From a virus (Duplodnaviria; Caudoviricetes): 30,472 nt of DNA. The notes under the pieces were generated by a model, which worked only from the letters and a program-made list of their open reading frames with translations, did no database searches and was not told the DNA's origin. Shown here piece by piece: positions 16,068-28,651 of this stretch. The stretch covers positions 1-30,472 of the IMG/VR virus record IMGVR_UViG_3300043391_000022; one strand, 5' to 3'. Numbering within the stretch: position 1 is the stretch's first letter; each line of letters begins with the position of its first letter. The translations under genes were made by a program, and so were the position numbers.

Positions 16068-16145
16068 ATCCGGGCTTTCCGGTGTGTCAAACTGTCCCGG
16101 CAGACATCATGCAAGATTGACGCACCTTTAACTGCATGAAGGAAA
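16068..16145 (+). ncRNA. multi-pseudoknot RNA, candidate Mu-gpT-DE-like motif
   Basis: Four interleaved helices: ccggg/cccgg, ggtgtgtcaa/ttgacgcacc, ctg/cag, tcatgca/tgcatga; directly downstream of a Mu-gpT-like MCP gene. Confidence 0.7.
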
Positions 16146-16149
16146 TATC

Positions 16150-16614
16150 ATGGGATTCGCAACTCACCTTGGCCCTTGGCTCTTGGGCACAACCAAAAAC
16201 ACAACTGGCACAACCGCCGCAACTACTCGTAACACGGGTTGCGCCATCGTATCTCAGTCTGCAAACGTAGTGTTTGGTACATTGACCGGCAACGCTATTG
16301 CCGTCCCTGCTGGCGCACAAATTACATCAATTAAAGTTGTTACCACAACCGTGTTTAGCGCAGCCACTACGTTGTTGTTAAGCATTGGTGGTACAGCGTT
16401 TACGACCACAGGCACTATTACAGCAGTTGGCAGTGTAAATTTGGAAGCAAATGCAACTACCCCCACCAATTGGTTAAATGTGGGTTCTACGGACACCTTC
16501 ATTACCTACACGTTGGCAGGCACGTCTTTGACCACCGGCGCTGCTACGATCATCATTAACTACTCAGTTCGTGATTCCGACGGCAATCAATCCCAGCCTG
16601 CCCAACAACAGTAA
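16150..16614 (+). CDS. Thr-rich virion structural protein
   Basis: MGFATHLGPWLLGT; beta-rich; AAGGA RBS. Confidence 0.7.
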   Translation: MGFATHLGPWLLGTTKNTTGTTAATTRNTGCAIVSQSANVVFGTLTGNAIAVPAGAQITSIKVVTTTVFSAATTLLLSIGGTAFTTTGTITAVGSVNLEANATTPTNWLNVGSTDTFITYTLAGTSLTTGAATIIINYSVRDSDGNQSQPAQQQ

Positions 16615-16622
16615 TTGATCTT

Positions 16623-16642
16623 GGGGGCTTCGGCCCCCGTTT
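16623..16642 (+). terminator. GC hairpin with UUCG loop (weak terminator or stabiliser)
   Basis: gggggc-ttcg-gccccc followed by gttt. Confidence 0.6.
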
Positions 16643-16657
16643 ACAAGGAGATTGATT

Positions 16658-27120: not shown

Positions 27121-27157
27121 GGGGTTACGCCGCTGCCCCATTTCAGCGGTACTGGAG
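27121..27157 (+). ncRNA. H-type pseudoknot abutting an RBS
   Basis: gggg(27121-24)/cccc(27136-39); gccgctg(27129-35)/cagcggt(27144-50); GGAG at 27154. Confidence 0.6.
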
Positions 27158-27165
27158 AACTTTAA

Positions 27166-27336
27166 ATGAGTGAAGAACTGAACACGTCCATCAACCTGAC
27201 TTTGCCTTTGGGCGCAGTGAATATGGTTTTGTCTGCTTTGGCTAAAGCGCCTTATGAGCAAGTTGCTGACTTGGTGCAAAACATCAGGGCACAGACAATC
27301 CCACAAATCCCCGCACCTCCAGAGGAGACCGAATAA
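27166..27336 (+). CDS. small protein (56 aa; not in ORF track)
   Basis: MSEELNTSINLTLPLGAVNMVLSALAKAPYEQVADLVQNIRAQTIPQIPAPPEETE*; GGAG RBS. Confidence 0.8.
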   Translation: MSEELNTSINLTLPLGAVNMVLSALAKAPYEQVADLVQNIRAQTIPQIPAPPEETE

Positions 27337-27400
27337 CCCAGACCGTTACTCCGGGTAAAGGGGGTGCTGGCAGACCATCCTATTGGGTTAACGTCTGCCC
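27334..27400 (+). ncRNA. three-way-junction pseudoknot RNA upstream of lysis cassette
   Basis: taaccca/tgggtta, ttact/ggtaa, ggggtg/catcct and loop-tail ggcagac/gtctgcc helices. Confidence 0.6.
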
Positions 27401-27417
27401 CAAATTAAGGAGTTGAT

Positions 27418-27717
27418 ATGGATGACAAAGGCGCTTTGATAGAAAAAATCACGTTTGCTTTGTTGCCATTGCTGTTTTCGTGCGTCGTTTATTTAATGTC
27501 TGCTTTGTCAAATTTAGCGCATGAAGTAACCATTCTGAACAGCAAAATCAGCCTTGTTGTTACGTCAGACAATCGTCAATCACCAAACTCAGGGGCCGAG
27601 CTTGCCCGTGAAAAACTACGCCAAGACTTGGAAAAAGAAATCCAAAAAAACCGCGACGACATTGCAAACAATCGGCAAGACATTGCTCTCATTTACGAAC
27701 GACTGAAAGGAAAATAA
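27418..27717 (+). CDS. membrane-anchored coiled-coil protein (lysis-associated, putative)
   Basis: TM ITFALLPLLFSCVVYLMSAL; TAAGGAG RBS. Confidence 0.7.
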   Translation: MDDKGALIEKITFALLPLLFSCVVYLMSALSNLAHEVTILNSKISLVVTSDNRQSPNSGAELAREKLRQDLEKEIQKNRDDIANNRQDIALIYERLKGK

Positions 27718-28211
27718 TGTTTGATTTACTATCGGGCGGTATTTTAGGATCAATATTTGGCGGTGTATTCCGCCTTGCTCCCGAAGTCTTAAAGTTCTTT
27801 GATAAAAAGAACGAGCGCGAGCATGAGCTTAGTATGTTCAGCCGACAGTGCGAATTGGAAACATTGCGCGGTCAGCAGAAGCTGGCAGAAATTGGCGCTC
27901 AACGTGAAGCGGCAGTTGATGTGGGCGTGATGGATGCGTTCAATGCGGCAATCAATCAGCAAGCTGAAATGGTTAAAGCGGCAGGCGGTTGGGCGGCTAG
28001 TTTATCGGCCTCTGTGCGGCCCTTGGTGACGTATTGGGTCTTGTTCATCTGGTCGTTTGTCCATGTATGGTTTGCGTGGAATGCATGGCTTGCTGGCGCA
28101 GCGCCCGTAACTGTGTTTACAACAATGATGACACCAGACTTCTCTGCGCTGTTAGCAGGAACAATAAATTTTTGGTTTTTGGATCGCACTTTAGCCAAGC
28201 GTGGGTTATGA
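27717..28211 (+). CDS. holin (putative)
   Basis: SASVRPLVTYW, multiple hydrophobic segments, FWFLDR; directly upstream of lysozyme. Confidence 0.65.
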   Translation: MFDLLSGGILGSIFGGVFRLAPEVLKFFDKKNEREHELSMFSRQCELETLRGQQKLAEIGAQREAAVDVGVMDAFNAAINQQAEMVKAAGGWAASLSASVRPLVTYWVLFIWSFVHVWFAWNAWLAGAAPVTVFTTMMTPDFSALLAGTINFWFLDRTLAKRGL

Positions 28212-28651
28212 ACCTAGAGATTGCTGCTGCACTGTGTAAACAGTTTGAAGGCTACAGGGCTAAGCCATATTTGTGCCCGGCGGGTATACCTACAATTGGT
28301 TACGGCTCTACTTACTACGCAGACAAACGCAAGGTAACTTTAGAAGATTCCCCGATGGATGAACCCACGGCAAAGGCTCTGTTGATGATTGAGCTTGAGC
28401 ACACGTACCTGCCCGGCGCTTTACGGAACTGCCCCGGTCTGGTTACAGACGTTCGTAAGTGCAATGCGATTGTAGATTTTGTTTACAACTTGGGTATTGG
28501 GCGCTTGCAAACCTCTACGTTAAAGAGGAAAATCAATGCCAATGATTGGGAGGGAGCAAAAGAACAATTGATGCTCTGGACTAAAGGTGGCGGTCGGGTA
28601 CTGCCGGGACTACTTAAACGCCGCACGGTTGAGTGCGCCCTACTGGATTGA
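28208..28651 (+). CDS. endolysin, GH24 phage lysozyme
   Basis: FEG..KPYLCPAGIPTIGYG (E-x8-C-x5-T), DFVYNLG, LPGLLKRR; likely start ATG 28208 overlapping the holin stop. Confidence 0.93.
   Translation: MNLEIAAALCKQFEGYRAKPYLCPAGIPTIGYGSTYYADKRKVTLEDSPMDEPTAKALLMIELEHTYLPGALRNCPGLVTDVRKCNAIVDFVYNLGIGRLQTSTLKRKINANDWEGAKEQLMLWTKGGGRVLPGLLKRRTVECALLD

Follow-up and report, generated by a model that had tools for sequence, protein, structure and literature searches.

H-type pseudoknots can be substrates for RNase P. The described cases are the biotin-aptamer pseudoknot pPK, the tRNA-like ends of turnip yellow mosaic virus (TYMV) and tobacco mosaic virus (TMV), and the T2/T4 gene 32 pseudoknot followed by ACCA, the last of these a claimed substrate; cleavage falls in loop 1, at C8-N9|G10, when a 3' RCC (R, purine) is provided (PMC12710915). 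In Escherichia coli, intergenic structures beside RNase E sites set segmental mRNA stability (PMC5927463). Here we describe an RNA element of 66 bases (27334-27399, plus strand) in the 81-nucleotide (nt) gap between two open reading frames (ORFs) of 56 and 99 amino acids in the virus record IMGVR_UViG_3300043391_000022 (Duplodnaviria; Caudoviricetes); the whole stretch analysed, positions 1 to 30,472 of that record (30,472 nt), is called the window. Like the pseudoknots cleaved by RNase P, the element has an H-type core, a CC tail (42 of 69 copies) and, at bases that the collection patterns fixed, a C-N loop end before a helix that starts with G-C. Unlike them, it is internal to the mRNA of a DNA phage and has two extra helices, P1 and P2, and its tail is absent from 27 of the 69 copies and mostly C-C-A after a paired C, not R-C-C-A. 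By sequence comparison this is a real family of pseudoknotted RNAs, conserved and covarying. The reading of its function that we favour, at a probability of roughly 0.3, is that the element marks a processing boundary in a polycistronic phage mRNA: the pseudoknot helix would imitate the acceptor end of a tRNA and be cut by host RNase P and RNase E.

The fold is a three-way junction built around the H-type core, which consists of 6 base pairs (bp), a C-U loop and 7 bp with no middle loop; the long loop of the core and a strand upstream of it form P1. The 5' strand of P1 (27334-27341) begins on the TAA stop codon of the 56-amino-acid ORF (27334-27336), as the initial annotation had pointed out, and pairs through 7 bp and an eighth, G-U, pair with 27383-27390, which is loop 3 of the core. 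Just upstream, A27333 is an A in 68 of the 69 copies and was fixed by no collection pattern. P2 (27343-27354) joins CCG (27343-27345) to CGG (27352-27354) under the loop L2, TTACTC, and is followed by the A-rich, unpaired junction J2/3 (27355-27360), in which three A columns, partly fixed by one of the patterns, are kept in 63-67 of 69 copies. P3, stem 1 of the core, pairs 27361-27366 with 27376-27381. Loop 1 (C-U, 27367-27368) then leads into stem 2, the pseudoknot helix (27369-27375 with 27393-27399), whose 3' strand is preceded by a 2-nt linker. The fold ends 6 nt before the Shine-Dalgarno-like TAAGGAG (27406-27412, read from the sequence), again as first annotated, and at 27400-27406 a CCA tail (27400-27402) overlaps an RNase E-type RN|WUU word (W, A or U; 27402-27406; motif as defined in PMC5222698). 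We infer that stem 2 stacks on P3 to give 13 coaxial bp, and likewise the rest of the three-dimensional arrangement.

Copies were collected by pattern scans of IMG/VR and JGI metagenomes, followed by a covariance model and nhmmer; one truncated copy and copies with less than 45 nt of 5' flank were left out, giving 69 distinct copies among 731 loci plus the window, from aquatic phage and metagenome contigs. In a structure-blind MAFFT alignment of these copies, P1 was 95.5% paired, P3 99.3% and the pseudoknot helix 100%, with both sides changed in 5 of 8, 3 of 6 and 2 of 7 pairs, respectively, the pseudoknot changes being independent. Overall, 98.1% of cells were paired, compared with 90.0% in shuffles and 30-46% in slid controls. 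The initial annotation had named four helices and proposed to look for covariation in homologous spacers, and compensatory changes were found in three of the four: P1, the P3 stem and the pseudoknot between loop and tail. The fourth, a ttact/ggtaa hairpin, is present in the window but unconserved (51.6% paired, with registers slid by -1 or -2 equally good); the conserved P2 is CCG/CGG, a variable stem of 3-5 bp in 66 of 69 copies with loops that are 73% pyrimidine.

The compensatory changes in P3 include a G-C to C-G swap in 22 copies and a U-A to C-G swap in 13. On rough trees built without the tested columns, the U-A/C-G pair took 9 steps in each column and 9 as a pair, so that all of its changes were coupled, and each pseudoknot change was a single event; the two pseudoknot changes had first turned up in a scan in which the loop was left free. 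RNAalifold recovered P1 and P3 unaided. The nested fold of the window copy by itself is ordinary (z = -0.41; 63 of 200 shuffles were equally good). None of 20,000 dinucleotide shuffles satisfied a descriptor of P1 and the core together, and 4 satisfied that of the core alone; with both strands of the window scanned, the element was the only such site. The plus strand, for which the initial annotation had argued from G-U pairs, is supported because the G27364-U27378 pair is kept in 68 of the 69 copies and all 69 are oriented in the sense of a downstream gene. Because the collection patterns prescribed some bases of P3, of loop 1 and of the pseudoknot, invariance there is partly circular; the C-U of loop 1, found in 69 of 69 copies, was fixed by every pattern.

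The family is sharply bounded in score, true members reaching 53-99 bits with the covariance model and the next match 24 bits. A pattern that freed P1 and the loop interior returned five perfect pseudoknots among 120 matches, all of them known members, and a loose pattern yielded mostly chance matches among the matches listed. No DNA match to the element was found in GenBank phages. In 27 of the 64 parts of GTDB, 120 pattern matches included no full copy and one partial core (L477; L834:1798-1840, minus strand, in G002, a bacterial assembly), which comprises P3 and the pseudoknot with an ACC tail, lacks P1 and P2, lies between short genes and scores 24 bits; this single case is either a distant minimal form or a chance match. 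A 16-base pattern was rejected as a pointer to the host: it matched 65 of 401 genomes of one order, but a reversed control also matched many, and the pseudoknot partner was absent from all 20 loci fetched from that order. The 99-amino-acid gene family gave one weak match in 400 genomes.

Rfam 15, the other check proposed at the outset, returned no match at the gathering cut-off in the window or in 40 related loci, including 20 that bear the element; by E-value, the matches were at chance level, three of them in the window (E 0.27-10). Full-text literature searches found no description of the motif, and its core is absent from the readable supplements of PMC10690425 and PMC10085705; it may have been listed before as an anonymous candidate among the more than ten thousand viral candidate RNAs of PMC10690425, whose alignment archives lay outside the search. 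The initial proposal of an undescribed, cis-positioned, structured RNA on the sense strand agrees with the lack of an Rfam match, and the element represents a real, apparently undescribed phage RNA family, intergenic, pseudoknotted and not specific to lysis.

Besides the helices, comparison of sequences establishes that the element reaches from the stop codon of one gene to 16-22 nt before the next start, that the genes downstream are unrelated, and that it has been lost or replaced at one junction. In 29 of 69 copies P1 has the upstream stop codon as its first triplet; the stop lies on P1 or at most 6 nt upstream of it in 59 and inside P2 in 3, with offsets relative to P1 from -37 to +19. Three copies have lost the overlapping stop codon but keep the first P1 pair through a compensatory change. 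The fold ends 16-22 nt before the next start codon in 61 of 69 copies. Neighbouring genes fall into 16 upstream and 8 downstream protein clusters. Of these copies, 26 precede phrog_1123, a non-lysis family with no annotated function, in a DNA-metabolism operon, and others precede a holin, lipoprotein-like ORFs or unannotated ORFs. The initial annotation had tied the element to the timing of lysis, an interpretation that is right in part: a lysozyme and a likely holin with three transmembrane segments do lie downstream in the window, the adjacent 99-amino-acid gene has no family, and the range of downstream clusters does not support specificity for lysis. In G005 and G006, one copy lies in each of two opposed operons, and both copies of G005 are deep inside gene runs, far from the start of the run.

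Loss and replacement were seen at the phrog_1123 junction. Among the best 80 of 425 loci inspected, the element stood alone in 18 and in tandem with a different stem in 5, the different stem stood alone in 38 (the regular expression missing a few), 15 were scored as having neither and the flank was too short in 4; because the loci are related, these counts are not independent. The replacement stem is conserved, combines an outer helix that covaries with an internal loop of the loop-E-like type (GAAA/AGUA) and an RCC tail, and gives no Rfam match. It sits alone or right after the element in L750, L781, L811 and some 40 further loci, at a distance of 20-110 nt upstream of phrog_1123. A deletion scar marks the element's place in L758 and L762, and a remnant persists in L003. 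Relatives of the 99-amino-acid protein were followed in the best 80 of 593 loci: three have the whole element directly upstream, each after a different gene end, and a fourth ends at the contig end. Copies also differ in their halves. When L110, L642 and L606 are compared with L607 and L608, the 5' halves of the element follow the upstream gene and the 3' tails the downstream gene, and some of these copies have mixed P1 strands, which suggests that recombination inside the conserved core reshuffles gene modules.

The placement between a stop and a start would suit a translational insulator or ribosome-linked switch, an explanation that we consider unlikely and that includes the initially annotated idea of P1 opening as a switch on the ribosome-binding site. 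The core sits in the space that the footprint of a terminating ribosome and that of an initiating one leave between them; it would block re-initiation and leave the downstream gene to rely on its own start site, and pairing of L2 with the Shine-Dalgarno sequence is a further possibility. Insulation against re-initiation has been described for structures that immediately follow a stop codon (PMC7518266), and the element has the position of such ribosome termination structures (right after the stop in a gap of more than 25 nt), as the stop offsets and the 81-nt gap of the window indicate. Homologs of the 99-amino-acid gene that lack the element have a gap of at most 10 nt in 67 of 74 cases, mostly stop-start overlaps, compared with 79-81 nt in the 3 that have it. 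With the stop on or within 6 nt of P1 in most copies, a terminating ribosome would plausibly melt P1. We modelled access to the start region in 65 copies in four states, blocking or freeing the pseudoknot bases and P1 in each combination; the mean was flat at 0.58-0.60 (0.595, 0.590, 0.577 and 0.587), although in the window it was 0.40, 0.52, 0.32 and 0.32, that is, 0.40 folded versus 0.52 with P1 open. The model is crude and nested and cannot fold pseudoknots, so this is weak evidence that modelled ribosome-site access holds no conserved switch. L2 resembles an anti-Shine-Dalgarno sequence, can pair with the Shine-Dalgarno region by 2-5 bases and pairs with its own tail better than with shuffled tails (3.23 versus 2.79 nt), but it does not covary with its own tail as against the tails of other copies (p = 0.07; 0.20 within families). 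The spread of stop offsets also speaks against an insulator, for which stability alone would suffice and conserved unpaired bases would not be needed. A readthrough or frameshift pseudoknot was rejected because the reading frame across the gap is not conserved (23, 17 and 29 of 69 copies in the three frames); a second in-frame TAA lies at 27406.

For the processing boundary that we favour, the evidence centres on the pseudoknot helix and the tail behind it. Guided by the CCA or ACC tail, RNase P would cleave loop 1 at U27368|G27369, and the 5' end of the downstream cistron would then be base-paired. Cleavage by RNase E would fall at 27403|27404, a single base beyond the CCA; the upstream cistron would keep a structured 3' end, and the downstream one would begin with a bare 5' end. 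Neither cut would touch the stop codon or the ribosome-binding site, so the element would determine how long the cistrons on its two sides last relative to each other, in the window the lysis genes among them. The 7-bp helix begins with G-G after the C-U loop and would lie in line with the 6-bp helix, and this C-U|G-G word, pattern-fixed in the 69 copies, is also present in element-bearing spacers from the protein-led search. CCA directly follows the helix in 29 of 43 late-operon copies and CC occupies tail positions 2-3 in 13 of the 69, making the total of 42 given above; by tail class, 10 of 69 have a strict RCC, 29 CCA after a paired C, 3 another NCC and 27 none. Among distinct tails, the CC signature is present in 27 of 50 (1.8 +/- 1.3 when shuffled) and RN|WUU falls within the first 10 nt in 27 of 47 (about 5 when shuffled); at the same distance from the start codon, RN|WUU precedes 2 of 34 window genes. 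RNase E is described as cutting close to the 3' ends of tRNAs (PMC5222698), and in late-type copies RN|WUU puts an RNase E-type cut one base past the CCA.

At the same junction, the replacement stem, although unrelated, bears the same signature: of its 24 distinct copies, 20 carry RCC behind the helix (about 1 when shuffled), 23 have G at +1 and 22 a pyrimidine at -1. We also count the use of the element independent of gene identity, on both sides and in two opposed operons, towards a processing boundary. With the malE-malF and papB-papA structures (PMC5927463) and ribosome termination structures (PMC7518266) it shares a site between a stop and the following gene, close to RN|WUU words; most of those structures are simple hairpins that are defined by their stability, whereas the element is conserved in sequence and pseudoknotted.

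Several observations weigh against processing by these enzymes. CC stands in neither register in 27 of 69 copies and follows a purine in only 10, and a test pseudoknot lacking RCC was left uncut (PMC12710915). Among distinct tails, RN|WUU occurs in 19 of 28 of the late type but in only 5 of 17 of the early type; the replacement stem has it in 2 of 14 tails. The shuffle controls overstate significance because tails share ancestry, and the invariance of the C-U-G-G word, fixed by the search patterns, is partly circular. Full tRNA mimics feature a T-loop and an anticodon arm; the element has neither, ARAGORN found 0 genes, and L2 varies in length and sequence. P2 and L2 are left unexplained, the simple pseudoknot at 27121-27149 next door has no G start or RCC tail, and the searches of bacterial genomes pointed to no host and so to no particular nucleases. 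One RNA-library contig of 151 nt (depth 3) runs uncut across both predicted sites, a single case (n = 1) that may be DNA.

RNA-library data came from three runs, in which 4-7% of words were covered by contigs that carry no information on ends, strand or level and in which uncovered parts are meaningless. The contig, from run X3, spans 27334-27484; its start, which has no loose end, coincides exactly with the first base of P1, a single case (n = 1) that a read end, a branch point of the assembly or DNA may explain. It would also fit a roadblock to decay that is itself never cut, in which 13 coaxial bp and P1 would halt RNase E as it scans from upstream, to the benefit of the downstream cistron, and would halt 3'-5' exonucleases, to the benefit of the upstream one, or, in a variant, a brace against 5'-3' nucleases resembling an exoribonuclease-resistant RNA (xrRNA). 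Coaxial pseudoknots hinder RNase E scanning according to length, modestly at 11 bp and potently at 15 bp (PMC9943677), and placement independent of gene identity suits a roadblock too. Like class 1 xrRNAs of flaviviruses (PMC7603331), the element is a three-way junction of similar size with the helix order P1-P2-P3, in which L3, the loop of P3, pairs with the strand just 3' of P1 (pseudoknot PK2). Unlike them, it has no PK1, the pairing of the 5' end with J3/1, has a longer P1 and a longer pseudoknot helix, and is intergenic in phages; A27333 stays constant in 68 of 69 copies while its possible PK1 partner, U27381, varies and covaries with G27361. The replacement stem, moreover, is a simple hairpin of the type that RNase E bypasses (PMC9943677), and a roadblock leaves the CC tails common to element and replacement stem unexplained. 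We regard an uncut roadblock as unlikely.

Size, complexity and an intergenic habitat in phages are shared with small self-cleaving ribozymes (HDV-like, after hepatitis delta virus, twister, pistol, hatchet, twister sister and hammerhead). The pairing of L3 with the strand after P1 resembles P1.1 of the HDV ribozyme. The hammerhead core is CUGANGA/GAAA, and that of HDV comprises G1, GG after P1 and a catalytic C; neither is present in the element alignment, and no ribozyme of Rfam matched, in line with the initial statement that no ribozyme or riboswitch core could be recognized. A new class of small ribozyme that processes the polycistronic message by self-cleavage nevertheless seems to us improbable. 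With 66 nt, a multistem junction with a pseudoknot, conserved bases and covariation, the element fits the criteria given for ribozyme candidates in PMC10085705, and bacterial self-cleaving ribozymes near phage genes have been proposed to process polycistronic RNA (PMC6765202). There are multiple copies beside varied genes and with tandem neighbours, and the fold would bring the conserved A27333 near the junction of P3 and the pseudoknot. Yet no unpaired G is invariant, cleavage at the 5' base of P1 would strip the 29 copies that begin on the upstream stop codon of that codon, and ten motifs chosen by the same criteria (PMC10085705) and three other candidate motifs (PMC5737381) failed to cleave.

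A binding site, whether a phage protein operator, an antitermination element or a ligand-sensing aptamer, is in our judgement the most improbable of these explanations. The H-type pseudoknot of T-even gene 32 nucleates protein upstream of an A/U-rich ribosome-binding region (PMC3014915); the element, also two stacked helices in a phage mRNA upstream of such a region, differs in ending 16-22 nt rather than about 67 nt before the start and in not being tied to one gene. It follows a member of an SSB family (SSBs bind single-stranded DNA) in 2 of 69 copies, comes after an unnamed short DNA-metabolism gene in 17 and precedes neither, so that it lies downstream, not upstream, of likely SSB genes. 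Genomes with two copies have one per operon, and unpaired bases are conserved, but no downstream function is common to the copies, and both copies of G005 lie far from the start of their gene runs. Around the element in the window, no terminator (0) and no credible promoter were predicted. A riboswitch was rejected for want of a consistent downstream function in the 8 unrelated clusters; as to an expression platform, there is no terminator, no modelled switch, and a weak match of L2 to the Shine-Dalgarno sequence that does not covary.

As a virus record, the window is linear and 48% complete, and it encodes a terminase, capsid and tail-fibre proteins and a lysozyme; its terminase is closest to those of HTVC023P/027P-type phages (53-57% identity). 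All genes around the element are on the plus strand. The 56-amino-acid ORF (27166-27336) belongs to no known family, and its homologs show the same arrangement with the element. The 99-amino-acid ORF (27418-27717) has a hydrophobic N-terminal segment and no family match. It is followed by a 164-amino-acid membrane protein (27717-28211; phrog_6637, function unannotated), which is the likely holin on an Atlas lead, and by the phage lysozyme or endolysin (28208-28651; PF00959, E = 3e-31; phrog_7), 3' of which further virion genes lie on the same strand.

Other candidate structures were observed in the window and related phages. The preceding gap is filled by the simple H-type pseudoknot at 27121-27149 (GGGG/CCCC and CCGCTG/CAGCGG), which ends 16 nt before the 56-amino-acid ORF, has no Rfam match and shows compensatory changes in its 6-bp stem in the homologs L648, L358 and L689. 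After the capsid-gene terminator and a promoter-like stretch, 16070-16149 may form a pseudoknotted RNA in which a small hairpin accompanies a 10-bp stem and one loop strand is complementary to the bases just before the ribosome-binding site of the ORF at 16150. Right after stop codons lie a 6-bp hairpin with a possible small pseudoknot (1148-1186) and a UUCG-capped hairpin (16615-16651). In a related phage, L833:8609-8683 gave a sub-threshold match to int-alpA of Rfam (28.4 bits against a cut-off of 35.8; E = 0.024).

The same phages hold at least two more covarying intergenic RNAs that lack an Rfam match. The element is a small, well-supported RNA family with natural variants, deletions and replacements already known, so that short transcripts and two-gene reporters can put each competing explanation to the test. 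PMC12710915 calls it an open question whether RNase P cleaves mRNA pseudoknots in vivo, and this family would make that directly testable. Self-cleavage, if it occurs, would make the element a new class of ribozyme; a block to 5'-3' decay would make it a phage counterpart of the flaviviral xrRNAs. More broadly, and with less confidence than we give to the processing boundary itself, aquatic DNA phages might punctuate their mRNAs with portable mimics of tRNA ends, either this pseudoknot or an interchangeable RCC-tailed stem, at which host RNase P and RNase E would cut out cistrons of different lifetimes. If the tRNA-end reading is true, a pseudoknotted acceptor arm in the style of plant viruses would exist inside bacteriophage mRNA.
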